Counted from the first letter of the stretch, positions 1 to 17,205 are shown. The stretch is DNA of 20,000 bases from Candidatus Aminicenantales bacterium (GCA_049512315.1 JBEKXF010000002.1:112706-132705); one strand, 5' to 3'. Notes: generated by a model not told the origin, from the sequence alone. Numbers and translations are program-made.

Positions 1-2702
1 TTGCTGGGAAAGGACTCGTAGCCGCGGACGAGGTCCCAGTAGGCGATATAGTAAGGATAAAAGCGATCATCCCCGGCGTCCTTGCCGTACCGGCCGACGT
101 GAAGAGCCCGGAAGGCCAGGGTGAACGGCTTGACCGGCAGGAAATATTTCCGGAAATCGGCTGAAACCGTCGTGAAATTGATGTTGCCGATAGCCGGGGA
201 CACGGCCAGGCCGTAGCTCTGGCCGATAATGGGGCTGGTCGCCCCGAAGATCCCCGTGTCATAATAAAGCCCGGCCGTGGCGTAGCCGAAGCCGAGCCCC
301 GGCTGCGATTCCGGGTGGGTCTTGCTGTAGAAGATCTCGTACCCCGTGGCATAGGAATAGGCCCAGGTGTAGAGCGTCTGGCTGAATCCGATGTGGCGGT
401 AACCGGCGCTCAATTCGATCCGCTGGGCGGAGCTCAAGGGGTAGGAGGCGAAGGCGGAAACGTCGTAGTTGATGATCCGGTAGACCAACTCCTGTTCGAC
501 CATGGCCGGTTCGCCGTACGTGGTCGTGTCATCATAGATGTTATAATAAGGATAAGGATAGACGATCCGCTGGGCGGCCATTCCCCAGTTCAGGCGGTTC
601 TTGCTGTTGAGGTAGGCCACGACACCGGAAGTATCGATGATCTGGGGGCCCGTGATCGCGGTCGTGATGACCGTGTTCGTGCCCAGCATGTCGCTCCAGT
701 ACGCGGAGATCCCTCCCGCGCCGTAGGTCCCGTACCGGTCAACCCCGATGGCCAGCGAGGGCGGCGTGACGTAATCCAGGGCCAGTTTGGACTTGTACGG
801 GGAGACCGCGAAATTCGTGTCCTTGGGCAATCCGAACAGGGGGTTCTTGAGGAGCCCCATGAGGGAACCCTCGGATTGGGTCCGCGGCGGCAGGAGGGCG
901 GGGTTGCGGTCGAATTGGGCCAGGAAGGACTGGCCGGCCAGCACGGTCGGGTCGGCAATGACCGAGATCGAGAAAAAATTCCCTTCGTACGTGCTGAGGA
1001 TGATCCGGCCCGCCTGCGTCAGCGTGATCGCGGGGCTCAGCTCCGTGATCCCGCTGATGCCCGTGTAAAGGTTCGTGACCTGGAAGATCTTCCCCGAATC
1101 CAGGTCGATCCGGTAGAGATCGGTCTTGCCGTTCTGGTCTGAAAGAAAATAGAGCCCCTTGGAGTCCGCCGTCCACTGGGGGTTGATGTTCTTGCCGTTG
1201 GGGAAGGCCAGGACCTTCTGGATCTGGCCGGATTCGACGTCCATGAGGGCCAGCTCATAATGGCCGATATCGACCCATTCCAGGTTCGTCGTGAACCTTT
1301 CGGTCACGAAGGCGATCCTCTTCCCGTCGGGCGACCAGACCGGTTGGAGGTCGCCGTAAACGTCGCGGGTCATCTGTTTCAGGACGTTGTGCTCGAGATC
1401 GTAGATGAAGATATCGGTGACGCCGCCGGCCAGGGCCGAAAAAGCGATATAGCGGTCATCGGGCGACCAGCAGGGGCTCAGGATCTCGCCGAGCTCCTTG
1501 AAGGGGATCTCCTTCTCGACCCTGTCCTTTTTCATGTCGAGGATGGTCAGGACGGGCCGCCCCTTGGTGACCCCGCCGAAGACGAACTTCTCGCCCTTGG
1601 CGTCCCACGACCCGGTCGATCGGATGAACTCGATGCTCTCGAAATGGGGGTCGAGGGCCGTCGAGATCAGCTTCCTCTTGACCTGGCCGGTCTCGGCGTC
1701 CGCCAGGAACATGTCGATGGAGAAGAGGTCCCGGCTGGACATGAAGACCATCTCCTTGCCGTCCGGGCTGACGGCCGGGGAAATGTTGTACATGCTGTTG
1801 TCCGTCCCCTTGATGAGGATCCTCGCGAACTTGTCCGTGCTCTGGGTCTTTTCAAGGAGCGGGTTGTAGGCGTCCTGCATCGATTTGTGCCAGTCGGCCG
1901 AGAGCTGCTTGAGCTTGATCCCCAGGACTCCCTCGAGGATGACCTCGTAGTCCCCGGTCCGGCCGACGGACTTCATCATCTTGCCGATGACCTCGTCCCC
2001 CCAGCGTCCGGTGATGTAGGCCCACAGGGCCTGACCCCAGCGGTAGGGGAAGTATTTATAGGAATTGTCGAGCTTATTGATCGCCGGCAGGTCCTTGCGG
2101 CGGACGGCGTCCCTCATCCACATCGAGGTGTTGGGGTCGACCGGCCCGATGGAGAGGTATTCGGCCATCCCCTCGATGAACCAGAGTGGGATCCGCAGGT
2201 TCTGCTCGTTCACTCGGGCGGCGTCGGAGTGCCCCTGGGCCATGATGTCGTACTGGAAAGCGTGGACGAGCTCGTGGCCGATGACATGGTCGGTCTCATA
2301 GAGCGAGGCGCCATAGGGAAGGACGATCCTCCGCTTGAAGGACTCCGTGACTCCGCCCGTCCCCTCCCCCATCAGCTCCGAGATGACGGTGGTCTGCTGG
2401 AATTCGGGGCTGCTGCCGTAGAGGATCAGGGGCTGACGCGTCCGCAGCTCATAATTGAACATCCGGGAATAGCGCGAGTACCAGCGCTCGGCAATGAGGC
2501 CGGCGAGCTTGACGGTCTGTTCGTCCTCCAGATAGAAATAGATGTCGAAATGCCGGGTCTTCATGATCTTGAAGTCGAACTTCTGGTACTGGACCTTGTT
2601 CCGGCCGTAGTACTGAGCGTTCAATCCCGGCGCCAGTGCGCCGACGACGAAAACGAGGAGAGCGACGGCGATAAGATATCTCGGACAAGAGGTCAACCGC
2701 AT
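1..2702 (-). CDS. Exported multidomain outer-membrane protein: N-terminal gluzincin (Peptidase_MA-like) domain + PD40/TolB-like beta-propeller + Omp85 (BamA/TamA)-like beta-barrel; 3' end truncated by window edge (about 900 codons visible)
   Basis: Not in ORF track because it has no stop in the window. ATG at 2702 with SD AAAGGAGG at 2709-2716. Manual translation: MRLTSCPRYLIAVALLVFVVGALAPGLNA-QYYGRNKVQYQKFDF (signal peptide); HELVH (2262-2276) then PLWFIEGMAEY; repeats SPAVSPDGKEMVF, SPCWSPDDRYIAF, QPVWSPDGKRIAF, NPQWTADSKGLYF; aromatic-rich beta-strand C-terminal part ending ...ADFRKYF...YWDLVRGYESFPS with the Omp85 VRG[YF] motif at about 18-29. Confidence 0.9.
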   Translation of the reverse strand, partial: MRLTSCPRYLIAVALLVFVVGALAPGLNAQYYGRNKVQYQKFDFKIMKTRHFDIYFYLEDEQTVKLAGLIAERWYSRYSRMFNYELRTRQPLILYGSSPEFQQTTVISELMGEGTGGVTESFKRRIVLPYGASLYETDHVIGHELVHAFQYDIMAQGHSDAARVNEQNLRIPLWFIEGMAEYLSIGPVDPNTSMWMRDAVRRKDLPAINKLDNSYKYFPYRWGQALWAYITGRWGDEVIGKMMKSVGRTGDYEVILEGVLGIKLKQLSADWHKSMQDAYNPLLEKTQSTDKFARILIKGTDNSMYNISPAVSPDGKEMVFMSSRDLFSIDMFLADAETGQVKRKLISTALDPHFESIEFIRSTGSWDAKGEKFVFGGVTKGRPVLTILDMKKDRVEKEIPFKELGEILSPCWSPDDRYIAFSALAGGVTDIFIYDLEHNVLKQMTRDVYGDLQPVWSPDGKRIAFVTERFTTNLEWVDIGHYELALMDVESGQIQKVLAFPNGKNINPQWTADSKGLYFLSDQNGKTDLYRIDLDSGKIFQVTNLYTGISGITELSPAITLTQAGRIILSTYEGNFFSISVIADPTVLAGQSFLAQFDRNPALLPPRTQSEGSLMGLLKNPLFGLPKDTNFAVSPYKSKLALDYVTPPSLAIGVDRYGTYGAGGISAYWSDMLGTNTVITTAITGPQIIDTSGVVAYLNSKNRLNWGMAAQRIVYPYPYYNIYDDTTTYGEPAMVEQELVYRIINYDVSAFASYPLSSAQRIELSAGYRHIGFSQTLYTWAYSYATGYEIFYSKTHPESQPGLGFGYATAGLYYDTGIFGATSPIIGQSYGLAVSPAIGNINFTTVSADFRKYFLPVKPFTLAFRALHVGRYGKDAGDDRFYPYYIAYWDLVRGYESFPS

Positions 2703-2874: not shown

Positions 2875-2904
2875 TTGACCTCGCCTCGCCAAATACGATA
2901 AGAT
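2875..2904 (+). promoter_or_regulatory. Possible sigma70-like promoter for the permease operon
   Basis: TTGACC (2875-2880), 18 nt spacer, TAAGAT (2899-2904), just upstream of ATG 2919; implies a very short leader. Confidence 0.45.
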
Positions 2905-2918: not shown

Positions 2919-4226
2919 ATGACCGCGCACGTCCTGATCATCCTCGCCGTCATGGCCGCCGCCTACGCCCTGGCCAAAACGAAGGGCTTGTCCGTCGAGC
3001 TGAGCATGTTCGCGGCGTCCCTGGCCGGGGGGATCGCGGGTGCTTTAGCCGGGACGCCGCCGGCCGGGGAGCTCGGGCGCCACCTTGTCGAAGGGGCCTT
3101 CACGTACCTCGACGTCATCCTCGTCTTCTTCACGGCCACGCTGTTCATGACCATCGTCAACGAATCGGGCGGCGTTAATTATGTCGTCACGGCGACGGTC
3201 AGGGCCTTCGCCCGCCAACGCGCCCTGGCCCTCCTCGTCCTGATGATCATCGTCCTCATCCCGGGCGCCCTGACCGGGGCCGGCAGCGTTTCCCTCCTCG
3301 TCGTCGGGGCTCCGGTGGCCATGGCCCTCGGCCGGCTGGGGATCCCGAAAAAAAGGACCGCCGCGATTCTCTTCATCCTGGCCGGCCTGAGCGCCGCGGC
3401 CCCGCCCGTGAACATCTGGGCCATGATCCTGTGCGCGGGAACGGCCATCCCGTACGTCGGGTTCGAGCTCGTCCTGGGTCTCCCCTGCCTTCTCCTCGGC
3501 GCGTTCACCGTCTTCCTTCTCGGCTGGAAGAAAGACCCGCTCTCCGCCGAAGCCTCCGGCCAGTTGCCTGCGGCCCCGGCCGGGATAACCTGGTGGCGGG
3601 TTCTCGTTCCTTTCGCGGTCTTCTTCGGCTTGGTTATCGCCGGCCGCGTCTGGCCCTTCGGGACCCCCATCCTCGGCCTGTCCCTGGAGTTCACGGTGAG
3701 CGGCCTGGTCGCCCTCGCCCTGAGCCCGCGGAAGCTCCCGGTCCTGGCCCTTTCCCTGGACACCGTCCGACGACTCCTGCCTCTCCTTTCGACAATGGTC
3801 ATCGTCGGGATGCTCCAGCAGATCATGACGGCGACCGGCGTCCGGGGTCTGCTGTCGTTCGCCGTGATCTCGGCGCCCCTGGTCGTCCTCTTCATCCTCC
3901 TGCCCGTCATCATCCCCGTTTCCGAGGGGGTCCTGACCTACGGCGGGGCGGCCATCATCGGCATCCCGCTCGTCTGGTTCCTGGACTCCATTGGATATCA
4001 TGCGACCGTCGTCATCGCCGGGCTGAGCCTCCTCTGGCCCCTGGGCGACGGCCTGCCGCCCACGGCCCTCATCGGGCGGCTGAGCAACATGGTGTCCGGA
4101 TACCACGGTTCGTACTGGGATTTTCTGAGATCGACCTGGATCCCCTGGCTGGTCATCACGGCCACGGGGCTCCTGATGATCATCTTCAGCTCCAAGCTGG
4201 CCTTCCTGGTCCGATGGAGCATGTGA
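2919..4226 (+). CDS. DctM-like (TRAP large subunit / ion-transporter superfamily) permease, 435 aa
   Basis: Many hydrophobic segments throughout; two helical-hairpin-type PP motifs (AAAPPVNIWAMIL, LGDGLPPTALIG) as in IT-superfamily carriers. Start moved from the track's 2748 to ATG 2919 (MTAHVLII), because the upstream part is non-hydrophobic and overlaps the promoter region. Confidence 0.8.
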   Translation: MTAHVLIILAVMAAAYALAKTKGLSVELSMFAASLAGGIAGALAGTPPAGELGRHLVEGAFTYLDVILVFFTATLFMTIVNESGGVNYVVTATVRAFARQRALALLVLMIIVLIPGALTGAGSVSLLVVGAPVAMALGRLGIPKKRTAAILFILAGLSAAAPPVNIWAMILCAGTAIPYVGFELVLGLPCLLLGAFTVFLLGWKKDPLSAEASGQLPAAPAGITWWRVLVPFAVFFGLVIAGRVWPFGTPILGLSLEFTVSGLVALALSPRKLPVLALSLDTVRRLLPLLSTMVIVGMLQQIMTATGVRGLLSFAVISAPLVVLFILLPVIIPVSEGVLTYGGAAIIGIPLVWFLDSIGYHATVVIAGLSLLWPLGDGLPPTALIGRLSNMVSGYHGSYWDFLRSTWIPWLVITATGLLMIIFSSKLAFLVRWSM

Positions 4227-4260
4227 GGACCCTGATGCCTGGCATTGTCCGGAGGTTCGG

Positions 4261-4416
4261 ATGTCCTGGGTCATGATCGCCTATTATGTGATCAGCGCTT
4301 TCCTCCTGGCCCTTCTCGCCTGGAACTTCGTCCGGGAAAAGAAGAGCCCGGACGACCTCGCCCTCTATCTCTTGGTCATGATCCCGCTCATCCTGAGGCT
4401 CCTCCGGGTGAAATAG
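4261..4416 (+). CDS. Small 51-aa membrane protein with two predicted TM helices
   Basis: GGAGG at 4251-4255, ATG 4261, TAG 4414-4416; MSWVMIAYYVISAFLLALLAWNFVREKKSPDDLALYLLVMIPLILRLLRVK. Fills the gap between permease and deacylase (9 nt to next ATG) and has GC-rich third positions like its neighbours. Shorter than any ORF listed in the track. Confidence 0.85.
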   Translation: MSWVMIAYYVISAFLLALLAWNFVREKKSPDDLALYLLVMIPLILRLLRVK

Positions 4417-4425
4417 GCGGAACCG

Positions 4426-5589
4426 ATGAAGCGCGAAGGACTTTTAAAATCTCTGTTCTTGGCGGCTGCTCTCGCCCTCCTCATCTGGGGAGGACCCCCG
4501 CTCTACCGGCACCGCCATTTTGACATCCCGGTCGTCGAAGGTCCCGGAGTCACGTCCGTGGCCAGGCTGAGCGACTATTGCCCCCCTCTCAAGGGCACGA
4601 TGGCCGACACGTCCGTCTTCGTCCTCGAAGGGAAGGAACCGGGAGGGAAAGCCATCCTCCTCGGCGACACCCATTCGAACGAGCCCGAAGGGCTGCTCGC
4701 CTCGCTCGTCTTCATCGAGAACGCGACCGTCGAAAAAGGAACGCTCTACGTCATCCCATTCTTCAACAACAGCGGCAGCCGGAACACCCGGCCCGGGGAC
4801 GGCTACCCGCTCTATTTCGAAATCCCCACGGACTGGGGGGGCCTGAAGATCAGGTTCGGGAACCGTGACGCCTCCCCTCTCGACCAATGGCCGGACCCGG
4901 ACGTCTACATCCATTATCCCGACCGGCAGCTCCTGTCCTTCATCGACGTCCGGAACGTCAACCGGACCTGGCCCGGGCGGCCTGACGGACCCCTGATGGA
5001 GCGGGTCACGTTCGGCGCCATGGAGATCATGCGGAGGGAAAAGGTCGACGTGGCCGTCGACATGCACGGGGCCGAGACGATGTTCCCGGTGACGAACTGT
5101 ATCGTGGCCCCTGAGAAATCCGTCAAGATCGCCACCCTGGCGGCCATGACCGTCAAGGCTAAGGAGGGGTTCGAGAGTCACGTCGAGCCGTCTCCGGCGG
5201 GCTTCCGGGGCCTTTCCCACCGGGAGATCGGCGACCACTCCGGAACGCTGCCCTTCCTCCTCGAGGCGCCCATCCCCTTCCTCGACCAGCCGACGGGCCC
5301 CAAGACGACCAAGCTCCTCCTCGACGGCAAGGACCCGTTTCTCTTAAGCCTGGCTCGGGGGAAAAAGCTTTTCGTCCCCTATGACGAATCCGGCTGGCCC
5401 ATGGAGAGGCGGGTCGGCCAGCATTGCTCGGTCGTCCTCGAAATCCTCCGCCAGTTCTCAAAAAAGTTCCCGGATAAAGCCATCGTGGTCCGGGACGTCC
5501 CGCGATACGCCGACCTCGTCAAGAACGGAGTTGGGCACTATTTCCTGAACCCGGACAAGGCGGAGCGAAAAAAGATCGTCCTGAATTGA
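4426..5589 (+). CDS. Succinylglutamate desuccinylase/aspartoacylase-family (M14-like) zinc deacylase with N-terminal signal/anchor, 387 aa
   Basis: HxxE motif (GDTHSNEPEG), NVNRTWPG (cf. NLNRxFPG), VDMHG third zinc ligand; N-terminal MKREGLLKSLFLAAALALLIWGG hydrophobic segment. Confidence 0.85.
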   Translation: MKREGLLKSLFLAAALALLIWGGPPLYRHRHFDIPVVEGPGVTSVARLSDYCPPLKGTMADTSVFVLEGKEPGGKAILLGDTHSNEPEGLLASLVFIENATVEKGTLYVIPFFNNSGSRNTRPGDGYPLYFEIPTDWGGLKIRFGNRDASPLDQWPDPDVYIHYPDRQLLSFIDVRNVNRTWPGRPDGPLMERVTFGAMEIMRREKVDVAVDMHGAETMFPVTNCIVAPEKSVKIATLAAMTVKAKEGFESHVEPSPAGFRGLSHREIGDHSGTLPFLLEAPIPFLDQPTGPKTTKLLLDGKDPFLLSLARGKKLFVPYDESGWPMERRVGQHCSVVLEILRQFSKKFPDKAIVVRDVPRYADLVKNGVGHYFLNPDKAERKKIVLN

Positions 5590-5623
5590 CGGATCGACCA
5601 TAGATCTTCCGGAGGTGACCCCG

Positions 5624-7348
5624 ATGTCTCTGATCAAAAAACCGGGCCCGGCGCTGGTCCTCGTCGCGGCCCTCATCGTCACGGGATTGGCACTCGTTCA
5701 CTCCCGCCCGGAAAAAGCGGGGGCGCCGGCGGCCGCCGACGAATTCGAGAACTGCACCGTCATTATGGTGGGGAAAGAGGCCTCGACGGACGGCTCGGTC
5801 ATGGCGACCCACGCCGCCGATTGCGGAGTCTGCGATTTCACCTGGCGCCACGTGCCGGCCGCGGACCACAAGCCCAGCGATAAAAGGAAGATCTACCACA
5901 TCAATCAGATCCGGACTTGGCCCCCTTCCCAGGGCCTGAAGTGGGACCTGATCAAGAAAGATCTCACGGGCCTGGAGTTCCCCGAGGTCCCTCATACGTA
6001 CGGCTATCATCATGCCGTCTTCGGCTATATGAACGACCAGCAGCTGGCCATCGGCGAGTCGACGATAGGAAACCAGCGCAAGATGTCGAACCCCACGCCC
6101 TCGGGCGTCATGGACATCACCATGCTCACGCTCCTGGCCATGGAGCGGGCCCGGACCGCCCGGGAGGCCATCAAGCTCATGGGGGGCCTGGCCGAGCAGT
6201 ACGGGTACGGCTTTCACGACTCGGGCGAGATGCTGGCCGTCGCCGATCCGAAGGAGGTTTGGGTCTTCGAGATCATGCCGGTCGGTCCCCTGTGGACGCC
6301 CAAGACCGGCAAGCCGGGCGCCGTCTGGGCGGCCCAGCGTGTTCCCGACGACGAAGTCTCCGTCTGCCCGAACGAATCGCGCATCGGCGAGATCGACCTC
6401 GCCCATGCGGAGTATTTCATGGCCTCGCCGAACGTCGTGTCCTACGCGGTCGAGGCCGGATTCTACGATCCCAAGAGCGGCAGACCGTTCAACTGGAAAC
6501 GGGCCTACAACCCGGCCGAAGCGAGCGCCGCGACCGACCCCCGACGATCCCGGCTGTGGCGCTTCCTCGACCTCGTGGCTCCGTCGCGGAAGTTCAGCCC
6601 CGAAACTCCCAACATGGATTTCCCTTTTTCGGTGAAGCCGGACAGGAAGCTCTCCGTGGAGGACGTCATGGCCATGACCCGGGACAAGTCGCAGGGAACG
6701 GCCTTCGACCCGGTCCGCGGCCTCCGGGGCGGCCCCTTCCAGAACCCGAATTACTACAAGGGGACTCGGCTGATCAGCGTCCCGAACGTCGAGTACACGA
6801 CGGTCACCCAAAGCCGGGCCTGGCTCCCGGATAGCATCGGCGGCATTGTCTGGGTGGCCCTCGGCTCCCAGGATACGTCCTGCTACATCCCTTTCTATGC
6901 GGGCGTCACGGACATCCCGAAGTCCTTCTCCGTCGGCGACCACTGGGTCCTCAACCGCGAGGCCGCCCGCTGGGCCTTCGATTACGTGGATTTCCATGTC
7001 CAGGTAGCCTACAACGCGGCCATCGTCGACGTCAGGGAAGCCCAAAGAAAATGGGAGAGTGAGGCCGTGGCCGGCGTCCAGGAGAGAGACCGGCAGGCCC
7101 AGGAGCTGTTCCGCAAGAGCCCCGCGGCCGCCGCCCGCTTCCTGACCGGCTATTGTCTGACAAACGCCCGGAACGTCATCGAAGCCTGGTGGAAACTCGG
7201 GGACGACCTCTGGGTGAAATACAACCATGGCATGCTCTACAACGCGGGCAAGCGGCTGAGCGGTCGGATCCCCACGGCCAACCCGGAGTGGTGGAACAGG
7301 GCCGTCCGGGCCCATGATGTCCTGACGGAGCCCGATGCGAAAAAGTGA
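5624..7348 (+). CDS. Exported peptidase family C69 (dipeptidase/secernin-like Ntn-hydrolase), copy 1, 574 aa
   Basis: GGAGG 5611-5615 favours ATG 5624 over GTG 5615. Signal peptide, then CTVIMVGKEASTDGSVM (nucleophile Cys at 5753-5755), MNDQQLAIGEST, LAMERARTAREAI, GEMLAVADPKEVW, WAAQRVPDD, NESRI. Confidence 0.9.
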   Translation: MSLIKKPGPALVLVAALIVTGLALVHSRPEKAGAPAAADEFENCTVIMVGKEASTDGSVMATHAADCGVCDFTWRHVPAADHKPSDKRKIYHINQIRTWPPSQGLKWDLIKKDLTGLEFPEVPHTYGYHHAVFGYMNDQQLAIGESTIGNQRKMSNPTPSGVMDITMLTLLAMERARTAREAIKLMGGLAEQYGYGFHDSGEMLAVADPKEVWVFEIMPVGPLWTPKTGKPGAVWAAQRVPDDEVSVCPNESRIGEIDLAHAEYFMASPNVVSYAVEAGFYDPKSGRPFNWKRAYNPAEASAATDPRRSRLWRFLDLVAPSRKFSPETPNMDFPFSVKPDRKLSVEDVMAMTRDKSQGTAFDPVRGLRGGPFQNPNYYKGTRLISVPNVEYTTVTQSRAWLPDSIGGIVWVALGSQDTSCYIPFYAGVTDIPKSFSVGDHWVLNREAARWAFDYVDFHVQVAYNAAIVDVREAQRKWESEAVAGVQERDRQAQELFRKSPAAAARFLTGYCLTNARNVIEAWWKLGDDLWVKYNHGMLYNAGKRLSGRIPTANPEWWNRAVRAHDVLTEPDAKK

Positions 7349-7402
7349 CCGCCGGTGCGGGCGGCCCGTGATCCAAGGGAAGCATCGACAAGGAGGCCAT
7401 CC

Positions 7403-9139
7403 ATGAAATCTCGAAAAATCCCGTCCTTGGCCGGAGTCTTCTTCCTCACGGCCCTTCTGGCCGGGGCCCTCGCCAGCCAGAAAGCGGCCCCGCCGAAACT
7501 CGCTCAGGACGATCTCCTCGCCCCGCGCGAATCCTGCACGTCCATCCTCGTGGGCAAGGACGCCTCGGTCGACGGTTCGGTCATGACTACTCATACCTGC
7601 GACTGCGGGATCTGCGACTGGACCTGGCGTCACGTGCCGGCGGCCGACCACAAGCCCGGCTCGACGCGCCGGATCCTCCACATTTCCCAGTACAAGACCT
7701 GGCCGCCGTCGGAGGGTCTCAAGTGGGACCTGGTCAAGAAGGATTACGCCGGATTCGACATCCCGGAGGTCCCGCACACCTACGGCTATCATCACGGGAT
7801 GTTCGGCTACATGAACGAGAACCAGGTGGCTATCGGCGAATCGTCGATCGGCAACCAGCGCAAGCTGTCGAACCCGACCCCTGCGGCCGGCCTGGACCTC
7901 ACCATGCTGACCCTTCTCGCCATGGAGAGGGCGAAGACGGCCAGGGAGGCCATTCAGATCATGGGAAGCCTGGCCGAGAAGTACGGGTACGGCTTCCACG
8001 ACGAGGGTGAGATGCTCGCCGTCTCCGACCCGAACGAGGCCTGGATTCTCGAGATCCTGCCCGTGGGGCCGTTGTGGACGCCCAAGAGTGCCAAGCCCGG
8101 GGCCGTTTGGTGCGCCGAGCGCGTGCCCGACGACCAGGTCAGCGTCTGTCCCAACGAATCACGGATCGGCGAGATCGACCTGGCCAATAAGGACATGTTC
8201 CTCGCGTCGCCGAACGTCGTCTCCTCCGCGGTCGAGATGGGCTTCTACGACCCCAAGAGCGGCAAGCCCTTCAATTGGAAGAGGGCCTACTCCCCGCAGG
8301 AGGGCAGCGCCGTGAGCACGAACGGGCGGATCCAGAGGCTGTGGCGGTTCTTCGACCTCTCCGCCCCTTCCCTGAAGCTCAGGCCCGAAACGCCCAACAT
8401 GGACCTTCCCTTCTCCGTCAAGCCGGACCGCAAACTATCTCTCCAGGACGTCATGGACATGACCCGGGACCGGAGCTACGGGACGCCCTTCGACCCCGTC
8501 CAGGGGATCCGCGGCGGGCCTTTCAAGAACCCCAGCTATTACCGGCAGACCCGGCTCATCGACGACGGCCGGGCCGAGTACACCACGGTCACCCAATGCC
8601 GCGCCTCCCTGCCCGGCCCCATCGGAGGGATCGTCTGGATCTCCTTCGGGTCCCAGGACACGGCCTGTTACATGCCCTTCTACGCAGGGGCTGCGGAGCT
8701 GCCGGGGTCTTTTGCCGTCGGGGACCATTGGACCTTCAGCCGCGATTCGGCCCGCTGGGCGTCCGACTATGTCGATTTCCACGTCCAGGTCGCCTACTCC
8801 GAAGCCATCAAGGACGTCAAGGCCGCCCAGGCGCGGTATGAGGGCGAGACGATCGCCCAGATCCCCGAAATCGACAGGCAAGCCCTGGAGCTTTACAAGA
8901 AGAAGCCCGCGGAAGCGACGAAGTTCCTGACGGCCTTCGGCCTGAACAACGCCAAGACGGTCCTCGACGCCTGGTGGAAGCTCGGCGACGACCTCTTGGT
9001 CAAGTACAACCGGCTCTATCTCTACGATACCCAGAAAAGGATCTACGAGCGGGGCAAGCCGGCCACGCCGGACTGGTGGAAAAAAGCGGTTCGGGTCTTC
9101 GATATCCTGTCGGAACCGGAGAAAAAGGACAACCGCTGA
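7403..9139 (+). CDS. Exported peptidase family C69, copy 2 (tandem paralog), 578 aa
   Basis: AGGAGG 7391-7396, ATG 7403. Signal peptide, CTSILVGKDASVDGSVM (Cys at 7535-7537), MNENQVAIGESS, LAMERAKTAREAI, NESRI; collinear with copy 1 over the whole mature region. Confidence 0.9.
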   Translation: MKSRKIPSLAGVFFLTALLAGALASQKAAPPKLAQDDLLAPRESCTSILVGKDASVDGSVMTTHTCDCGICDWTWRHVPAADHKPGSTRRILHISQYKTWPPSEGLKWDLVKKDYAGFDIPEVPHTYGYHHGMFGYMNENQVAIGESSIGNQRKLSNPTPAAGLDLTMLTLLAMERAKTAREAIQIMGSLAEKYGYGFHDEGEMLAVSDPNEAWILEILPVGPLWTPKSAKPGAVWCAERVPDDQVSVCPNESRIGEIDLANKDMFLASPNVVSSAVEMGFYDPKSGKPFNWKRAYSPQEGSAVSTNGRIQRLWRFFDLSAPSLKLRPETPNMDLPFSVKPDRKLSLQDVMDMTRDRSYGTPFDPVQGIRGGPFKNPSYYRQTRLIDDGRAEYTTVTQCRASLPGPIGGIVWISFGSQDTACYMPFYAGAAELPGSFAVGDHWTFSRDSARWASDYVDFHVQVAYSEAIKDVKAAQARYEGETIAQIPEIDRQALELYKKKPAEATKFLTAFGLNNAKTVLDAWWKLGDDLLVKYNRLYLYDTQKRIYERGKPATPDWWKKAVRVFDILSEPEKKDNR

Positions 9140-9150
9140 GGAGGAATGCC

Positions 9151-9804
9151 ATGAGTATCCTTTGTAAACTGACCATCCTCGCGACCGGCCTCGCCCTGCT
9201 GGCCGCGCCGGCCGCTCCCGCCCAGACCGTTCCCAAGGCCGGACTCCCCGTCCTGACGACGTCGGCCGGCCAGAGCACCGACGTCGAGACCCTCAATATC
9301 GTCATGGAGGAGGCCGGCATCAAGTATGATTACTGCGACGTCCCCACGGCAGACATGCTGGCGTCCGGCGTCGGCCTGGGCGGGAAACAGTCCGGGCCCG
9401 GCTTCCATGTCGAAGTCACCACCGACACCGCCAGGTTCCCCGTCGGGACGCCCTACAAGGCGGTCATCTTCGCCATCGGGGCCAGCCTGAAGGGCATGGG
9501 CGCCTCCGGGCTCACCCTCGAGAGTGAGGAGGCCCGGATCAAGAAGCTCGTCGACTTCTGCAAGCAGAAGAAGATCCTGATCATGGCCGTCCATATCGGC
9601 GGCGAGTCCAAGCGGGGGGCATCCGGCAGCGATAACGAGCGGATGATCGACGCGGTGGCCCCGTTCGCCGATTACCTCGTCGTCACCAAGGACAGCAACA
9701 AGGACGGCCGGTTCACCAAGCTGGCCAAGGGCCGAAACATTCCCTTGACCGAAATCGACTTTGCCCTCGGCCTCGTGGACATCCTCAAGCAGGTCCTGCT
9801 CTAA
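9151..9804 (+). CDS. Exported protein of unknown function, DUF6305-like, 217 aa
   Basis: AGGAGG overlapping the upstream stop (9139-9144), ATG 9151. Signal peptide ending APA-Q; motifs PVLTTSAGQS, GASLKGMGASG, HIGGESKRG, NKDGRF, which I recall from DUF6305 proteins (not verified by search). Confidence 0.7.
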   Translation: MSILCKLTILATGLALLAAPAAPAQTVPKAGLPVLTTSAGQSTDVETLNIVMEEAGIKYDYCDVPTADMLASGVGLGGKQSGPGFHVEVTTDTARFPVGTPYKAVIFAIGASLKGMGASGLTLESEEARIKKLVDFCKQKKILIMAVHIGGESKRGASGSDNERMIDAVAPFADYLVVTKDSNKDGRFTKLAKGRNIPLTEIDFALGLVDILKQVLL

Positions 9805-9880
9805 GACACGGAGGTTTGATCCGGCCTCTACGGGCGCGACCTCGGGCCCGTCGATATCCCGACCGGGGAGGAGATCACTC

Positions 9881-12205
9881 ATGAACCAGCGGATTTTCAT
9901 CAAGGCCACATTTCTCCTGTCGGCTCTGATCCTGATGACTTTTTCGCCCCCCGCCGGAGCCTCCGAGGCAATCCCCCGGGCCAGGTATCTTGCCTACGCC
10001 CGGGCCTCGGCCGATTGGGCCTACGCGCATTCCGCGGACGTGCTGACTCAATGGAAGAAGACCTTCGATCCCCTCAACGTCTTCGGCTACCGCCCCCCGG
10101 GAGGGTTCCTGGAAACGGCCGTCATCTATTCCTATCTTTATGAAAAGGAAAAAAAGCCCGAATACGCCGACCGGGCCAAGGCCATCCTCCTCTCCTATGG
10201 CGATTGCCGCTCCGCCTACCCTGAATCGTCCGTCAAGCTCAGGCCGGACTATGCCGAGGGCGTCCCGGCCCTGCCAGATTTCTTCACGGGCATGAGGTAC
10301 ATCCGGGCCTACGACACGCTGCGCCGCCTCGGCCGCTTCTCGCCGGAAGAGAAAATGAAGGCGGAAGGCCTCATTGCCGAGAGCATGCGCTACCTCCTTC
10401 GGACCCAGGAGTGGGGGCCGATGAACCGGTCCGCGCTCCGGGCCGAGTCCCTGGCCTGGGCTGTCCGGGCCCTCCCCGACTACCCAGAAACCCCGAAGTG
10501 GGAGATGCAGCGGCAGGCCTTGGGTAACGACAACTGGGGCCATTGGGAGATCGAGGACGCCACGATCTACAACGGGGTCTGGCTCTACTCCATCCTGGGC
10601 TACGCCGACGCCATGGGAAAAATGGATGATCTCTTCAAGACGCCGGAGATCTCCTATTATGCCCAGTATTACACGCACCTCATGAGCCCGGCCGGGATGA
10701 TCCCCGACTTCGGCGACGCCCATTGGATGTCGAACTGGACCCATTTCCTGGTCTTCTTCGAGGCGGCTGCGGCCCGCTTAAAGGCCCCCGCCCTCAAGTG
10801 GGCGGCGGACACAATCGCCGCCAGGTTCGTCGATTTCGCGAGCCCGGCCAACGTCGGGCTCGGGGCCATGCTCCTCGACTGTTACCGATGGGGAACGGAC
10901 GATGTCAGGCCGGCCCCGCCCTCCGAGCTGTCCGGAGAAGTCATGGAGGACATCGTGGGCAAAAAGATCGTCTTCCGGGACGGCTGGACCCCCCGATCGA
11001 CCTACCTCCTCCTCAATTACCGGGACGAGGGGGACGGCGGCCTGAACTATCGGGACTATCTGAGGGACTCCATCCCCGTTGAAGAAGAAAAGACGACTCA
11101 CGGCCACGCCGACGAGAACAGCCTCGTCCTCCTCATGTCGGGAGGCTCGGTCCTCCTCCATGACGCCGGCTATCGGGACTACATGCCGTCCGGCCCGTTC
11201 GGCGCGTATCGCCAGGACTATTTCCACAACCGGCTGTGCGTCCGGCCGGAGAAGGTCTGGATGGGGCAGAAACAGGGCGAGTATCGCTACAGCATCCGCG
11301 ACGCCGTTCCCGGCCAGGACCTCCTCGGCTTCCTCCGGGACGCCGGCTCCTACCGTCGGACGCGGACCCAAAAAGTCGACTTCCTGACGTTCCCGGACTT
11401 CGATTACAGCCGGACGCGTGTGACCGATGACAATTGGGGTTATCAATCCGACCGGGTCGTCGTCTATGTCAAGGATCCCGGGTGCTTTGTCGTTTTCGAT
11501 ATCTTCAAGGCCCTCCGCGAAGAATATTTCACCCTGGCCGGCCTCTGGCACACTCAGAAGATCTTCGCCCGGGGCGAACACTGGTATGACACCGGATATG
11601 AGAGGATCCAGAGCTCCGAGCTCGGGACGGACCGGCGGCTGCTCATCGCTTTTCCCTCCCCGCAGGCCGTGATCGAGGGGACGGAACCGGAGAGAAGACA
11701 TTACCAGGACGAGTGGTTGATCCATCAGACCAGGGCCCAGCATTTCGAGCTCGGCGGGACGGCCGTCCTCGTCTCCGTGCTCGTCCCCCACGGCGCTGCG
11801 GACGACCCCCGGCCATGGCTCGAGCGGATCTCGCTCGCGCCCGCCGGGCCGGAAGGAAAGGCCGTCGGCGTCAGGATCCGGAGCGGAGAGAGGGACGTCT
11901 GGATCGGCGTCAAGACGGACCTCCGGATGGACATCAGCCGCGATATGCGGCGCCCCCGCTACACCTACGACGCCGGCCGGATCCGGGTCGGGGAGATCGA
12001 GACGAACGGGGATTTCCTTTTCGCGTCCAAAGAGGAGGGCCGGCTGCGCTACACGATCGTCAACCTGACCAAAGCCCTGTTCAAAGGTTCGCCGCTCGTC
12101 GAGGTCAAGGACTCCCTCTACGGGCTGGCCTTCGACGCGAGCCCGGACCAGGCCGGGACCGGCAAGCTGCGCTACTGGAGGGACGAAGCTGTCATCAAGA
12201 GATAA
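9881..12205 (+). CDS. Exported heparinase II/III-like (polysaccharide lyase fold) protein, 774 aa
   Basis: GGAGGAG upstream of ATG 9881; signal peptide MNQRIFIKATFLLSALILMTFSPPAGA; helical N-half and beta-rich C-half; motifs EDATIY, IPDFGDA, HGHADENS, LLHDAGY, YFHNRL match the HxHxDxxS / DxGxY / HN pattern of heparinase II/III-like domains. Confidence 0.65.
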   Translation: MNQRIFIKATFLLSALILMTFSPPAGASEAIPRARYLAYARASADWAYAHSADVLTQWKKTFDPLNVFGYRPPGGFLETAVIYSYLYEKEKKPEYADRAKAILLSYGDCRSAYPESSVKLRPDYAEGVPALPDFFTGMRYIRAYDTLRRLGRFSPEEKMKAEGLIAESMRYLLRTQEWGPMNRSALRAESLAWAVRALPDYPETPKWEMQRQALGNDNWGHWEIEDATIYNGVWLYSILGYADAMGKMDDLFKTPEISYYAQYYTHLMSPAGMIPDFGDAHWMSNWTHFLVFFEAAAARLKAPALKWAADTIAARFVDFASPANVGLGAMLLDCYRWGTDDVRPAPPSELSGEVMEDIVGKKIVFRDGWTPRSTYLLLNYRDEGDGGLNYRDYLRDSIPVEEEKTTHGHADENSLVLLMSGGSVLLHDAGYRDYMPSGPFGAYRQDYFHNRLCVRPEKVWMGQKQGEYRYSIRDAVPGQDLLGFLRDAGSYRRTRTQKVDFLTFPDFDYSRTRVTDDNWGYQSDRVVVYVKDPGCFVVFDIFKALREEYFTLAGLWHTQKIFARGEHWYDTGYERIQSSELGTDRRLLIAFPSPQAVIEGTEPERRHYQDEWLIHQTRAQHFELGGTAVLVSVLVPHGAADDPRPWLERISLAPAGPEGKAVGVRIRSGERDVWIGVKTDLRMDISRDMRRPRYTYDAGRIRVGEIETNGDFLFASKEEGRLRYTIVNLTKALFKGSPLVEVKDSLYGLAFDASPDQAGTGKLRYWRDEAVIKR

Positions 12206-12211
12206 GGCGGC

Positions 12212-12733
12212 TCAGACGGGCAGGCCCTGCTGCTTTCTCTGCGCGTTCTTCTGGAGCTCCTGGCCGTCGGCGAGAAGTCCGGCCAGTTTGTCGAGGGTCA
12301 TCCGGATCTTGATATTGGCGAGCTTTCTTTTCCCCGACTTCTGGGTCTCGAAATGGGCCTGGAGGTAGCTCTCAACCTCCTGGGCGCTCATGATGTTCTT
12401 GACGAAGTCGTCGGCGGTGAGCTCCGCCTTCAGGTCCTCGAGCGTCTGGCCCTGGACGACGATCTTGTTCTCGACGAGCGCCTTGGACCTCCATTGCTCG
12501 AAATCCTTGGCGGCGTACACCGGAATGGGGCCCAGGAGCTTCTTGGCGTCCTGGAGCGTCTGATCGAAAAAGGCCTTCCCTTCCTTGAGGAAATTCCGGG
12601 CCCGGTAGTATTGGGGATCGCTCGCCGCGATGCGGTCTCCGAGGTAGTCCCTGAAGGTTTTGATGGAATCCGAGAGGAGCTCGAAGCACCGCGTCGCCCG
12701 AATGTAGATTTCGCGCTCGACCTGGACCTGCAT
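12212..12733 (-). CDS. Hypothetical cytoplasmic all-alpha protein, 173 aa
   Basis: Natural amino-acid composition (K/E/Q/L/A rich), GC-rich third positions, fills the gap without overlap, dedicated promoter upstream. No family recognised. Confidence 0.8.
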   Translation of the reverse strand: MQVQVEREIYIRATRCFELLSDSIKTFRDYLGDRIAASDPQYYRARNFLKEGKAFFDQTLQDAKKLLGPIPVYAAKDFEQWRSKALVENKIVVQGQTLEDLKAELTADDFVKNIMSAQEVESYLQAHFETQKSGKRKLANIKIRMTLDKLAGLLADGQELQKNAQRKQQGLPV

Positions 12734-12810: not shown

Positions 12811-14016
12811 CTATTTCCGGAGGATCGAGGCGGCGACGACGTTGGCGACTTTGCTCCGCATGGCGATGATCTCTCCCTTGTCGTCGGGGTGGACGCGGTT
12901 CGTCAGGAAGATGACGGCCGTCTTGGTCTCGGGGTCGATCCAAATCGACGTCCCCGTGTACCCCGAATGGCCGTAGGAGCGATAACTGAAAAGGTCGCCC
13001 CGGACCGTGCCGTAATCGGAGGTGAAGTCCCAGCCCAGGCCGCGGCCCGTGTCGGCGACCTTCGGGAAGACCTCCGTCATGCGCTCCACGGTGAGCGGGC
13101 TGAGGATGCGGACCCCGTTCCATTCGCCGCCGTTGAGCATCATCTGGGCAAAGACGGCCAGGTCGTCGGCCGTGGAGAATAGACCCGCGTTGCCTGAGAC
13201 GCCGCCCTGGAGCCTGGCCAGGGGGTCATGGACGACGCCGCGGAGCGGGCTGCCGTCCACGACCTGGGTCGGGACGCAAAGCGGGAGGAATTGGGGCGGC
13301 GGGTTGTAGAACGTCCGGCCCATTCCGAGCGGCTTGAAGATGTTCTCCGCCGCGAACTCGGCAATCGTCTGGCTGGTCACCTTCTTCACGATCCAGGCCA
13401 GGGTGATGTAGTTCAAGCAGCTATAGGTGAACTGCTTCCCGGCGGGGGATTCCTTGGGGATCTGGGAGATCACTTTGACGAGGTCTTCCGTGGAGCAGGG
13501 GTTGCCGTATTTTTTCTCGACCTCCTTGGGGTCCGTGTACGGCGGAAGTCCCGAGGTGTGGGTCAAAAGATGCCAGAGCCTGGCGTCGTCGGCCGGCACC
13601 CCCTTCTCCTGGAGGTAGACCGCGAAATCCGGGACGTAGGTCTTCACCTTGTCCCAAAGACGGATCTTCCCGCGCTCGACGAGGATCATGACCGAGGTTG
13701 CCGTCGCCACGGGCTTGGTGACCGAGGCCATGTCGAAGATCATATCCGTGGACATGGGCTTCGGCCCGGGCAGCCACTGGCTCTCCCCGAAGGCCCTTTT
13801 ATAGACCGTCTTGCCCATGCGGGTCACGAGGAGCACAGCCCCGGGGAAATCTTTGCGCTGGAGGGCTTCGTCGATGATCCGGTCGAGATAGGCCAGATGT
13901 TTCGATGACATCCCGACCTCCTCCGGCTTGGCGGCCGGGACCGGCTGCCCGGGGAGGAACGGAACGCTCCCCAGGAAGAGAAGGACGATCACCAGGAGCA
14001 TTGATGGCTTTTTCAT
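12811..14016 (-). CDS. Exported serine hydrolase, beta-lactamase/class C fold (AmiE/YbbE-like), 401 aa
   Basis: SD AAAGGAGG upstream; signal peptide; FDMASVTK (SxxK), LLTHTSGL, YSCLNY, GVVHDPLA, NAGLFS, GHSGYTGTSIWIDP, LTNRVHP. Confidence 0.88.
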   Translation of the reverse strand: MKKPSMLLVIVLLFLGSVPFLPGQPVPAAKPEEVGMSSKHLAYLDRIIDEALQRKDFPGAVLLVTRMGKTVYKRAFGESQWLPGPKPMSTDMIFDMASVTKPVATATSVMILVERGKIRLWDKVKTYVPDFAVYLQEKGVPADDARLWHLLTHTSGLPPYTDPKEVEKKYGNPCSTEDLVKVISQIPKESPAGKQFTYSCLNYITLAWIVKKVTSQTIAEFAAENIFKPLGMGRTFYNPPPQFLPLCVPTQVVDGSPLRGVVHDPLARLQGGVSGNAGLFSTADDLAVFAQMMLNGGEWNGVRILSPLTVERMTEVFPKVADTGRGLGWDFTSDYGTVRGDLFSYRSYGHSGYTGTSIWIDPETKTAVIFLTNRVHPDDKGEIIAMRSKVANVVAASILRK

Positions 14017-14052: not shown

Positions 14053-15204
14053 CTATTTTTTCTCCGACTTCTTCGGCTCTTCCTTCCAGACAAGGCCGTC
14101 CTGCCGGATATGCCAGCTTGTGCCCGCCTTGTTAATGTAGACGGCTTCGAAGAGGCTCTTGGTGGTCTGGATGAGCGGCGGATACAGCCAATCCTTGACC
14201 TTCAACTCCTTCGCGTTCTTCAGCCCGAGGGAGCCGAGGTCGTCCGCGAAGGCCCCTTTCTCGTCGAGCTGGGCCCTCTCTCCATAATAGATCCTGCGCA
14301 GGGCCCACTTCACTTTCTCCTCGGGACGGTCGACGAACTTGTCGCCCCCCGAGCCCGCTTTTTTATCCGAGAACTGGACGTAGCCCCACATCTCGGGGTA
14401 ATGGATGTTGATGACTCCCTGCGGGGCCCACGTCCAATTGTCCTCGGGCAGCTCCCGCCCCGACGCCGGGTCCTTGGCCTTCGTGTACTTTCCGTTCTCG
14501 ACGTTCAGATAATGTTCGACCCTGGAGAAATTCATCCGCCACTGGTCGCCCGCCGCCGGCCGCTCGGGCTTCCCGGGGATGCATTCTCTGAGAACGCTGA
14601 ACGGGAGCGCGATCTCGAGCGTCCAGGCCTTGTCCCTGTCCGACGGGTCGTTGAGGGTCCCGTTAACGTAAACCGCCGTCTTGAGGCCCCTGATATCCCA
14701 GGCATGGACGGCGGGGCCGGCGTCCCGGTAAGGCCTTATAAGAAGCAGGTCCCAGACGGTGTTCAGGGCATTCATCTCGAGCTCGTAGTAATCGTGGGTG
14801 TCCCCATCCGGGTCGATGAAGGCCTCGAAGTCGTTGTCCTGGAAGATGATCGAGTCCCGCTCGGTCAGCGTGGCCCAGACGTTGGGCTCTTCAAGGTAGG
14901 CTCCGATATAGAGGAACTGGTCGTCCCAGAGCATCTGGACCCGGGTCCGGAAGCGGGGTCTGGGCTTACCGGAGCCTTCGATGTCCCCGAAGACCTCGGT
15001 CCAGCCGGCCTTCAGCCACGAATCCTCGCTGAGCCGGCCGTCGATCTGGATGGGGCCGGCCGCGCGCTGTGCGATATATCGGTTCGGCGAGAAGGGGATC
15101 TTGGGGGCGGGGACATTCATCAGTGGAACGGCAGTGAGTGACAGACATCCTCCGATGAAGCCGATGACGACGAGGGCGAGCCTCGAAGCACGGATTTTCG
15201 TCAT
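14053..15204 (-). CDS. Exported carbohydrate-binding family 9-like (DOMON-like) protein, possibly a lipoprotein, 383 aa
   Basis: GAGGAGG overlapping the upstream stop favours ATG 15204 over the track's 15243. IQIDGRLSEDSW, VQMLWDDQFLYI, DNDFEAFIDPDGD, YYELEMNALNT, WTLEIALPF, WRMNFSR; possible lipobox IGGC at residue 20. Confidence 0.8.
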   Translation of the reverse strand: MTKIRASRLALVVIGFIGGCLSLTAVPLMNVPAPKIPFSPNRYIAQRAAGPIQIDGRLSEDSWLKAGWTEVFGDIEGSGKPRPRFRTRVQMLWDDQFLYIGAYLEEPNVWATLTERDSIIFQDNDFEAFIDPDGDTHDYYELEMNALNTVWDLLLIRPYRDAGPAVHAWDIRGLKTAVYVNGTLNDPSDRDKAWTLEIALPFSVLRECIPGKPERPAAGDQWRMNFSRVEHYLNVENGKYTKAKDPASGRELPEDNWTWAPQGVINIHYPEMWGYVQFSDKKAGSGGDKFVDRPEEKVKWALRRIYYGERAQLDEKGAFADDLGSLGLKNAKELKVKDWLYPPLIQTTKSLFEAVYINKAGTSWHIRQDGLVWKEEPKKSEKK

Positions 15205-15214
15205 GCGACCCTCC

Positions 15215-15712
15215 TCAAGCCCGGAGATCCAGGTAGCTGACATCGTTGCCGGACCAGGCCAGGAATCTCTCGAAGTCCGCGAACGAGATATCCAGGGTCA
15301 CCGTGTTGACATTGGCATGGAAACCGAGAAAACCGCTTCCCCGCAGGTCCTGGTCGACGATGACCCTGACTTCCTTGGCCGCGTCGTTGATCAGCCCGAA
15401 CGGCGAGACCGAACCCGGCTCTAGACCGAGGCAGCGCGCCAGCCGCTCGGGCGAGCCAAAGCTCAGGCGGTCCTCTTCGAGCATCCTGTTCAAGCGCCGG
15501 AGGTCGATCTCCCGGGACGTCGGGGCGACAACGAGGTAGTGGCGGTTCCCCTTCTTGTTGCGCAGGAAAAGGTTCTTGCAGTGCGTTCCCTTGAGCTCCG
15601 TCCAGTACTTGTCGGCGTCCTCGACCGTGAAGACGGGCGGATGCTTATGACGGACATAGGCGATCCCCAGGCTATCCAGGACGTCAAGGACTTTGCGCTC
15701 GGTTTCCGTCAC
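15215..15712 (-). CDS. proX: YbaK/INS-superfamily trans-editing aminoacyl-tRNA deacylase, ProX/PrdX (ProXp-ala-like), 165 aa
   Basis: GTG start with GGGAGAGG upstream; HPPVFTVE, CKNLFL (conserved Lys), RLSFGS, GSVSPFGLIND (GxxxP loop), FHANVNT. Confidence 0.85.
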   Translation of the reverse strand: MTETERKVLDVLDSLGIAYVRHKHPPVFTVEDADKYWTELKGTHCKNLFLRNKKGNRHYLVVAPTSREIDLRRLNRMLEEDRLSFGSPERLARCLGLEPGSVSPFGLINDAAKEVRVIVDQDLRGSGFLGFHANVNTVTLDISFADFERFLAWSGNDVSYLDLRA

Positions 15713-15846
15713 GGCCTCTCCCGCCGCCTTCCGGGCGGCGATTCAACGATTACGATAAATCAAAGGACCGACACCGCGCAAGCCGGAAATTTCTTGGCTG
15801 TTCCGGAGCTTCCCCGTTTCGGATAGAATAGGCCCATCGAGGAATA

Positions 15847-16956
15847 ATGGATCCCACAACGAAAAAAAACGTCTCCGTTCTCTTTACCCCGATCCGGATC
15901 GGCCCGGCGACGATCCCCAACCGCTTCGTCCGGTCGGCGACCCAGGATTTCATGGCCACCAACGAGGGCGAAGTGACGGACAGGCAGGTCGACCTCTTCG
16001 CCCGGCTCGCCGAGGGCGAGGTCGGTCTGATCATCTCCGGCCACGCATTCGTGGAGCCCCGGGGAAAGGCCAGCCCGCGCCAACTCGCCGTCTATGACGA
16101 CCGCTTCATCGAAGGCTTAAGACGGATCGCGGCGGCCGTTCACCGCTTCCCCTCGAGGATCTTCCTCCAGATCGCCCACGCCGGACGGCAGACCAAGGAA
16201 AAACTCTCCGGCTCGACGCCGGTCTCGCCGTCCGCCGTCTACGACCCCGTTTCCAAGGTCATGCCCCGGGAGCTTTCGGCGGCCGGGATCAGGGCTCTCA
16301 TCGAGGCTTTCGTCCAGGCCGCCCGCCGGGCCAGAGAGGCCGGCTTAGACGGAGTCCAGCTCCACGCCGCCCACGGCTATCTGCTGAGCGCCTTCCTCTC
16401 CCCCCACACGAATCGCCGGCAGGACGAGTGGGGTGGCCCGCTCGAGAGCCGGGCCCGCGTCCTCGTCGAGATCCTGAAGGGGATCCGGGCCCTCAACGGA
16501 AGGGGTTTCCCCATCATCGTCAAGCTCAACTCCACGGATTTTCTGGACGGAGGCCTGACCGTCGAGGAGAGTGTCCGGACTGCGATGATCCTGGAGGCCG
16601 CCGGGATCGACGGGATCGAGGTGAGCGGAGGCACGGCCGAAGCGGGCCGGGGCTCGATCTGGGCCGGACTCCGGAGCGAGGAGGATGAGGGGTATTTCGT
16701 GGCCGCGGCGGCCAGCATCAAAGCCGCGGTCAAAGTGCCGGTCTCTGGCCTGGGCGGGATCCGGACCCTCGGTGTGGCGGAAGAATTCGTCCGGGAGGGC
16801 CGGGTCGACATGATCTCCTTGAGCCGGCCTCTCATCCGCGACCCCTACCTCATCAAGAATTTCCGGGAGGGCCGGGTTTCGAAATCGGAGTGCATCTCCT
16901 GCAACAGGTGCATGAACCCTCGCGGGATCCGCTGCGCCGAGCTCAAGCCAGGTTAA
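15847..16956 (+). CDS. NADH:flavin oxidoreductase, Old Yellow Enzyme family, 369 aa
   Basis: LFTPIRIG..IPNRFVRSAT, LQIAHAGRQ, DGVQLHAAHGYLLSAFLSPHTNRRQDEWGG, GGIR, SLSRPLIRDP; C-terminal CISCNRC...C. Confidence 0.93.
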   Translation: MDPTTKKNVSVLFTPIRIGPATIPNRFVRSATQDFMATNEGEVTDRQVDLFARLAEGEVGLIISGHAFVEPRGKASPRQLAVYDDRFIEGLRRIAAAVHRFPSRIFLQIAHAGRQTKEKLSGSTPVSPSAVYDPVSKVMPRELSAAGIRALIEAFVQAARRAREAGLDGVQLHAAHGYLLSAFLSPHTNRRQDEWGGPLESRARVLVEILKGIRALNGRGFPIIVKLNSTDFLDGGLTVEESVRTAMILEAAGIDGIEVSGGTAEAGRGSIWAGLRSEEDEGYFVAAAASIKAAVKVPVSGLGGIRTLGVAEEFVREGRVDMISLSRPLIRDPYLIKNFREGRVSKSECISCNRCMNPRGIRCAELKPG

Positions 16957-16986
16957 TAGCGCCGTCCCATCATCATTTATTGTTGA

Positions 16987-17083: not shown

Positions 17084-17205
17084 AATATCTGAAACGAGTC
17101 TCTGAGTATTTTGTTCTAGGGGCCGTCCTTCTTTTCCAACCGTGCCCGCGTCGCGCTCAGTGTTTTCTCCGGGACATCCCCCCTGCGTCCGTAATTTTTT
17201 TATAA

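Follow-up and report, generated by a model that had tools for sequence, protein, structure and literature searches.

Gene organization of the locus

The window analysed here, a 20,000-nucleotide stretch of DNA from Candidatus Aminicenantales bacterium, contains seven same-strand open reading frames (ORFs) between positions 2919 and 12205, four of which form a conserved module that includes a permease and a protein of the DUF6305 family. All seven lie on the plus strand. The first encodes a 435-residue permease of the IT superfamily whose nearest family is DctM (2919..4226; the DctM/TRAP evidence is remote). It is followed by the gene for a 51-residue microprotein with two hydrophobic segments (4261..4416; conserved in position) and by that for a predicted 387-residue zinc hydrolase of the AstE/AspA type, related to M14 and carrying an N-terminal membrane anchor (4426..5589; weak AstE_AspA_cat match). 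Two genes for exported C69 peptidases come next (copy a, with a Cys N-terminal nucleophile, 5624..7348; copy b, 7403..9139; both assigned by Pfam C69). The fourth core gene encodes an exported DUF6305 protein of 217 residues (9151..9804; PF19823), and the last gene of the run an exported protein of 774 residues that was labelled heparinase II/III-like from its language-model likeness (9881..12205).

The ORFs and the intergenic gaps of 34, 9, 34, 54, 11 and 76 nt were as given in a preliminary description of this DNA, and its statements that most genes have a strong Shine-Dalgarno sequence and that every soluble product has an N-terminal signal or anchor were also borne out. A GGAGG-type Shine-Dalgarno sequence is located in front of six of the seven starts, the permease having GGAAGG only. 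The hydrophobic N-terminal stretches of the five soluble products reached a maximum 15-residue Kyte-Doolittle mean of 2.15-2.97 (2.43 for the hydrolase), compared with 0.27-1.33 for three neighbouring proteins of cytoplasmic type. The start of the permease gene was set at 2919, and not at the upstream ATG at 2748, because 435-residue homologues cover 100% of the product.

Conservation of a four-gene core

The conservation of the locus was investigated in two scans. A species-genome scan seeded with an alignment of the permease gave 369 relatives, of which the best 80, all from Aminicenantes-like assemblies, were analysed. A metagenome scan that started from remote members of DUF6305, with 31-38% identity to the window protein, gave 80 contigs, on which the context across phyla rests. 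Wherever a genome locus extended at least 1.6 kb 3' of the permease, an AstE-like hydrolase was encoded contiguously with the permease and the microprotein (67/67), and wherever it included at least 3 kb before and at least 8 kb after the permease, DUF6305 was present (41/41). Of the metagenome contigs, 61 extended for 3.5 kb or more to one side, and 55 of these had both the permease and the hydrolase; in all six misses the end of the contig was at most 2.6 kb away on the relevant side. Among 301 sampled genomes of the phylum, DUF6305 was detected in 17 and the permease in 16, all 16 being shared, and in the sole genome with DUF6305 but no permease the DUF6305 gene lies at a contig end.

These counts rule out a chance adjacency of the genes. 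They show that DUF6305, the DctM-like permease, the two-helix microprotein and the anchored AstE/M14-like hydrolase are inherited together, and the gene-neighbourhood check proposed for the locus therefore recovered a conserved unit, comprised of four genes.

The view that all seven genes constitute one system was not supported as it was stated, as the remaining three genes vary among relatives. The C69 copies are tandem genes with products that are 68% identical. They matched Pfam C69 with 217 bits (copy a) and 209 bits (copy b), Cys44 (after a signal-like stretch) and Cys45, respectively, being positioned at the profile start, and both scored below the NCBIfam equivalog cut-off (about 200 versus 250 bits). 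The C69 pair is an accessory specific to the lineage: 4 of 41 relatives have no C69 gene, 7 have one, 28 have two and 2 have three. The heparinase-like gene was present in 24 of the same 41 relatives and is loosely linked to the module, being separated from DUF6305 in one of them (L011) by two opposite-strand genes (DUF6599 and DUF362). Neither the C69 nor the heparinase-like genes were found in any of the 80 metagenome contigs.

The 774-residue product itself gave no Pfam match at E-values up to 0.01 and none in NCBIfam or among PDB sequences; its likeness to heparinase II/III clusters in a language-model comparison (0.95-0.99) is the sole basis of its label. Positions 14053-19999 of the window form a glycan-degradation neighbourhood with CBM9-like, GH88 and GH28 genes, and the heparinase-like gene may functionally be part of this set rather than of the transporter.

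The permease is a probable remote relative of DctM

When the window permease was compared with Pfam, no DctM match was obtained at E-values up to 1, and the only match was a weak one of the NhaC type. The same search with 63 members of the permease family matched DctM in 52 (best E-value 2e-14), CitMHS in 40, DcuC in 16 and NhaC-type families in 14, and a TctA-type match was listed for none of them. Sequence and profile searches against PDB chains were both empty. For an AF2 model of the permease (pLDDT 90), the top Foldseek matches were TRAP M subunits from IseQM and SiaQM (9pym_A, TM 0.73; 7qha_B, TM 0.73/0.75). VIA-align placed ArsB (Z 26.1) and SiaM (Z 25.2) level with each other, with DASS carriers scoring alike. 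The Pfam matches of the relatives, the Foldseek matches and the VIA-align scores together suggest that the permease is an elevator-type carrier of the IT superfamily, nearest to DctM by sequence. The earlier designation of the permease as DctM-like is thus supported by its relatives and by its modelled fold, and not by a Pfam match of the window protein itself; the relationship to DctM is predicted from remote evidence only.

A profile search of the genome, which is 96.6% complete, found no DctP (PF03480), DctQ (PF04290), TAXI (PF16868) or canonical DctM match. The lack of DctP and DctQ, first noticed for the gene run, consequently applies to the whole genome at the level of profile searches, and to TAXI as well. 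DctP, DctQ and TAXI were also absent among 30 annotated neighbour clusters, the annotated clusters being those that recur in at least 3 metagenome loci. In 3 of the 80 metagenome loci, a gene for DUF1850, which is usually found as an accessory to TAXI-TRAP systems, was observed no more than 8 kb from the module (e.g., L125, 16374-16904).

The microprotein and the anchored hydrolase

The 51-residue microprotein had no family match in Pfam or NCBIfam. In its hydropathy profile a charged loop separates two hydrophobic segments, and Tyr8, Pro42 and Arg46 are invariant among 51 sequences. It sits between the permease and the hydrolase in all 67 relatives (62 identified by tblastn and the remaining 5 by a hidden Markov model) and is also kept across the distant metagenome loci. 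A complex prediction for the permease, the microprotein and DUF6305 (residues 27-217) returned 'no answer' with a score of 0.00, which weighs neither way.

The window hydrolase scored 16.7 bits for AstE_AspA_cat, under the Pfam cut-off of 25, whereas its paralog elsewhere in the genome (see below) scored 26.1 bits, and it could be aligned locally with DoeB structures (E-value 7e-6). His83, Glu86, His214, Asn177, Asn179, Arg180 and Glu280 are invariant in 44 of 44 aligned hydrolases. By analogy with the AstE, aspartoacylase and DoeB enzymes, which are related to M14, His83, Glu86 and His214 are the putative zinc ligands and Glu280 the putative catalytic glutamate. The His-x-x-Glu ... His zinc site and an Asn-x-Asn-Arg motif are common to the window hydrolase and these enzymes. 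The window protein differs in its N-terminal anchor, in about 50 additional residues inserted between the motifs, and in being permanently tied to a permease.

DUF6305 is predicted to be a single Rossmann-like domain

The DUF6305 protein matched PF19823 with 142 bits (cut-off 25), and its AF2 model (pLDDT 96) is a single Rossmann-like alpha/beta domain. No clear relative was found among solved structures (Foldseek TM about 0.3; VIA Z no higher than 9.4); the best Foldseek rows were SGNH esterases, none of them strong, and a search for likeness outside the family itself gave no usable match. Sixteen residues are nearly invariant and are mostly located at or just after strand ends. They include Ser112, Lys114, Arg155 and Asp185, together with Glu126 and Arg129, which lie inside a helix; His148 is common.

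The proposal that transport is binding-protein-dependent is not supported as it was stated, since DUF6305 has one Rossmann-like domain with no clear solved relative and could be an enzyme. DUF6305 might, for example, be a serine-type hydrolase, or an isomerase, that acts on the released product outside the cytoplasm, with no receptor involved and with the permease and the microprotein working in the manner of ArsB or DASS carriers. Such a role would suit a single domain with near-invariant residues around its strand ends, the SGNH esterases at the head of the Foldseek rows and the lack of likeness to bilobed receptors, as well as the Z-score of the permease with ArsB, which is on a par with that for SiaM. 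However, none of the structural matches of DUF6305 is strong, and in several respects the protein resembles a receptor: it is exported or lipid-anchored, its gene is usually directly 5' of the permease gene, as dctP genes are, and it has a strict phyletic pattern in common with the permease. Tandem two-domain forms could, in addition, make a two-lobed binder. An exclusively enzymatic DUF6305 is accordingly regarded as somewhat unlikely.

Tandem two-domain DUF6305 proteins do exist (P0195 and P0251), one of them with a dockerin between the copies, which hints at an extracellular working unit with two lobes. Compared with the form that is linked to gamma-glutamyltranspeptidase (GGT), window-type DUF6305 contains about 30 inserted residues. 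Two conserved motifs were 70-87 residues apart in all 49 C69-linked copies and 40-48 residues apart in all 60 GGT-only copies, a difference that is confounded with phylogeny.

Only one of ten DUF6305 clusters that were looked up was labelled, with two accessions, from Atribacteria and Nealsonbacteria. A literature search found no paper naming DUF6305, and nothing on such a module, in the library searched; in the available part of an Atribacteria preprint (10.1101/536078), TRAP and polyglutamate are mentioned, and only separately.

Exported N-terminal-nucleophile hydrolases accompany the core

The genes around the core were compared in those loci where the core is complete and flanked by 4 kb at both ends. 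Of 34 such genome loci, 31 had C69 (two of them with GGT also), one had GGT only and two had neither. All 19 such metagenome loci had GGT, and 12 of the 19 had pgs genes. An N-terminal-nucleophile hydrolase was near the core in 51 of 54 loci with a 4-kb flank on each side. These observations show that an exported hydrolase of this class joins the core in nearly all loci, namely C69 in this lineage and GGT elsewhere, and that the two enzymes almost exclude each other as partners of this core. Across all 80 metagenome loci, GGT was present in 58, a PgsB-like ligase in 28 and CapC in 25; genes for poly-gamma-glutamate synthesis are frequent neighbours of the module. Among the 80 window-type loci, GGT was adjacent in 3 and the module was fused to pgsB-capC in 1; in that relative (L076) the order on one strand is C69, DUF6305, permease, microprotein, AstE-like hydrolase, pgsB and capC.

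In a permease tree (FastTree, unrooted, long branches flagged), the window-type permeases form one clade, to which the nearest rows are a pgs-linked paralog from the same genome and a GGT-linked contig.

It is possible that the window module has no connection with gamma-glutamyl polymers and instead scavenges ordinary or cell-wall peptides, from which the C69 and M14-type enzymes would release amino acids, possibly helped by a beta-lactamase-like enzyme. Some M14-type enzymes are known to cleave muropeptides at the gamma-D-Glu bond. Consistent with scavenging, the window has neither GGT nor pgs genes, the closest solved relatives of its C69 proteins are annotated as dipeptidases, and a beta-lactamase-type gene lies near both modules of this genome; the separate permease clade and the DUF6305 insert would also fit a changed specificity. 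The nearest outgroups of the window clade are nevertheless pgs- or GGT-linked, a few window-type loci are themselves beside GGT or fused to pgsB-capC, and C69 alternates almost exclusively with GGT on one core. Peptide scavenging is considered unlikely.

A second module in the same genome is linked to pgsB-capC

The same genome has a second module, on contig 7 (L005), with genes in the order DUF6305, a 190-residue anchored protein, permease, a 49-residue microprotein and AstE-like hydrolase. Its four core proteins are 50%, 49%, 47% and 36% identical to those of the window, the permease being the one at 50%. The 190-residue membrane-anchored protein (L005 9805-10377, minus strand), encoded between DUF6305 and the permease, has no family match and no counterpart in the window.

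The paralogous module is tail-to-tail with pgsB-capC. A 323-residue gene product without a Pfam match is encoded 3' of pgsB-capC (L005 4504-5475, plus strand), and a gene of its family comes after capC in 23 of the 80 metagenome loci; it is a candidate for a third synthase component in place of PgsA. Genes of the beta-lactamase family (serine hydrolases) were also observed near both modules, at 12811-14016 of the window (minus strand) and at L005 5562-7019 (plus strand), with about 28% mutual identity.

Several kinds of amide substrate had been listed for the system (N-acyl amino acids, gamma-glutamyl or isopeptide polymers, and amino-acid-decorated glycans). Gamma-glutamyl polymers are the best supported of these, as GGT and pgsB/capC genes are neighbours of the module in other loci, and as pgsB-capC lies beside the paralog; the others are less supported.

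An association with pgs genes might also mean that the module makes, trims or anchors a poly-gamma-glutamate layer, through glutamate supply or the processing of nascent chains, in which case the window copy would be a diverged duplicate. In many loci pgsB-capC and a third conserved gene run in the same direction as the module, pgs genes occur in the majority of the full-flank metagenome loci, and the tail-to-tail arrangement on contig 7 fits as well. On the other hand, the DNA examined was free of pgs genes in 52 of the 80 metagenome and 79 of the 80 genome loci, an elevator-type carrier of small solutes cannot move a polymer, and hydrolases outnumber synthase genes. A function in polymer synthesis is consequently considered quite improbable.

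Proposed function of the module

The reading preferred here is that the window contains the C69-type version of a conserved four-gene module for cleavage outside the membrane and import of the product, with a substrate that is most likely of the gamma-glutamyl type. Its probability is estimated to be about 0.55. Outside the cytoplasmic membrane, the exported C69 enzymes would cleave an acidic polymer or oligomer with amide linkages, a gamma-glutamyl one being the likeliest. The anchored zinc hydrolase would trim the short products, N-acyl amino acids such as gamma-Glu-Glu; N-acyl amino acids are the substrate class of AstE, AspA and DoeB. The released amino acid would be imported at the expense of an ion gradient by the permease and the microprotein, the latter acting as a small scaffold subunit that replaces DctQ. 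DUF6305 would either pass the product to the permease or perform one further extracytoplasmic step.

Several observations weigh against this interpretation. The predicted fold of DUF6305 differs from those of the DctP, TAXI and TctC receptors, and its invariant residues (Ser, Lys, His, Glu, Arg and Asp) might serve in catalysis. According to VIA-align, ArsB and DASS carriers, which need no receptor, are as near to the permease as TRAP M subunits are. GGT and pgsB/capC genes are both missing from the window, and the only GGT gene of the genome is about 29 kb before it. Ordinary peptides are a live alternative substrate because the closest solved C69 proteins are annotated merely as dipeptidases, and pgs genes in one operon with the module could just as well reflect synthesis or processing of the polymer. 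The permease tree, which is unrooted and was built with FastTree, does not show the order of events. The sequencing runs listed for the locus are of peat and sediment DNA, with no RNA run among them.

A more far-reaching version of the cleavage-and-import model, which is doubtful, is that the module represents a further class of receptor-dependent secondary transporter. DUF6305 would be its one-domain receptor, perhaps working as a pair, a 50-residue hairpin protein would take the place of DctQ, the hydrolase would be a subunit, and the whole would be specialised for gamma-glutamyl compounds with GGT or C69 as alternative front ends. Were the hydrolase a physical subunit of the transporter, cleavage and import would therefore be one coupled step at the membrane surface.

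Comparison with known systems

One of the closest comparisons is with TRAP transporters (DctPQM, SiaPQM, IseQM and TAXI-TRAP). Both they and the module have a permease with the elevator fold of the DctM/IT superfamily (predicted in the module), an adjacent gene for a small membrane subunit, and an exported or lipid-anchored protein that is usually encoded directly before the permease. They differ in that the small subunit of the module has about 50 residues and two helices, whereas that of TRAP is the four-helix DctQ; in that the exported protein is modelled as one Rossmann-like domain, whereas that of TRAP is a bilobed DctP or TAXI receptor; and in that an anchored zinc hydrolase is the invariable fourth member of the module. 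By the definition of TRAP in the available part of PMC5812351, from which the TRAP and TctABC features used here were also taken, the module is not a TRAP system, though it is TRAP-like in layout. TRAP-type carriers are defined by a DctP or TAXI receptor together with DctQ, and here a permease that appears DctM-related has other fixed partners, which raises the question of what scaffolds such elevator carriers and how substrate reaches them.

TctABC follows the same logic, combining a large permease of the IT type with a small membrane protein and with a partner that is exported (PMC5812351, as far as available). The sizes and folds of the partners differ, and the 63 permeases gave no TctA-type match.

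With the poly-gamma-glutamate systems of Bacillus (pgsBCA/capBCA, GGT/CapD, PgdS and the phage-type PghP/PghL), the module has in common that its relatives sit with pgsB, capC and GGT. PghP and PghL, described in the accessible portion of PMC6506827 as zinc carboxypeptidase-like enzymes that cut poly-gamma-glutamate, are a precedent for cleavage of gamma-glutamyl bonds by such enzymes. In contrast to the Bacillus systems, no Pfam-recognisable PgsA was found, the gene after capC being without a Pfam match; there is a dedicated permease module; the hydrolase belongs to the AstE/AspA type and not to the PghP type; and the window has C69 instead of GGT, and no pgs genes.

The observations that are new here are the two-copy state of the genome, the genome-wide lack of TRAP partners and the near-exclusive alternation of C69 and GGT. 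DUF6305 gains a concrete, testable context from this work. The genome contains two diverged copies of the module with different hydrolase partners, which are therefore a natural pair for work on specificity. The module also offers a lead on the way in which poly-gamma-glutamate, or acidic peptides related to it, may be turned over by uncultured anaerobes in peat, sediments, digesters and guts.

Signals and genes flanking the run

A promoter-like site was located 5' of the permease (2875..2904, plus strand; a weak consensus match only, 9/12) and a terminator-like hairpin 3' of the last gene (12219..12231, plus strand; consensus match only). Terminator-like sites were not more frequent in the region than in shuffled sequence.

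Divergent from the permease is the gene for an exported protein of 900 residues with PD40 repeats and Peptidase_MA_2 (3-2702, minus strand), which is cut by the window end; a divergent gene of this kind was also present in 29 of the 58 relatives with at least 3 kb upstream. A 173-residue ORF (12212-12733, minus strand) is tail-to-tail with the heparinase-like gene and is kept at the same place in several relatives; Pfam and NCBIfam searches with it were without a match. Further along, the YbaK-like ORF (15215-15712, minus strand) and the CBM9-like ORF (14053-15243, minus strand), when called as the longest ORFs, overlap by 29 nt (15215-15243), and the true start of the CBM9-like ORF may be further in than called.

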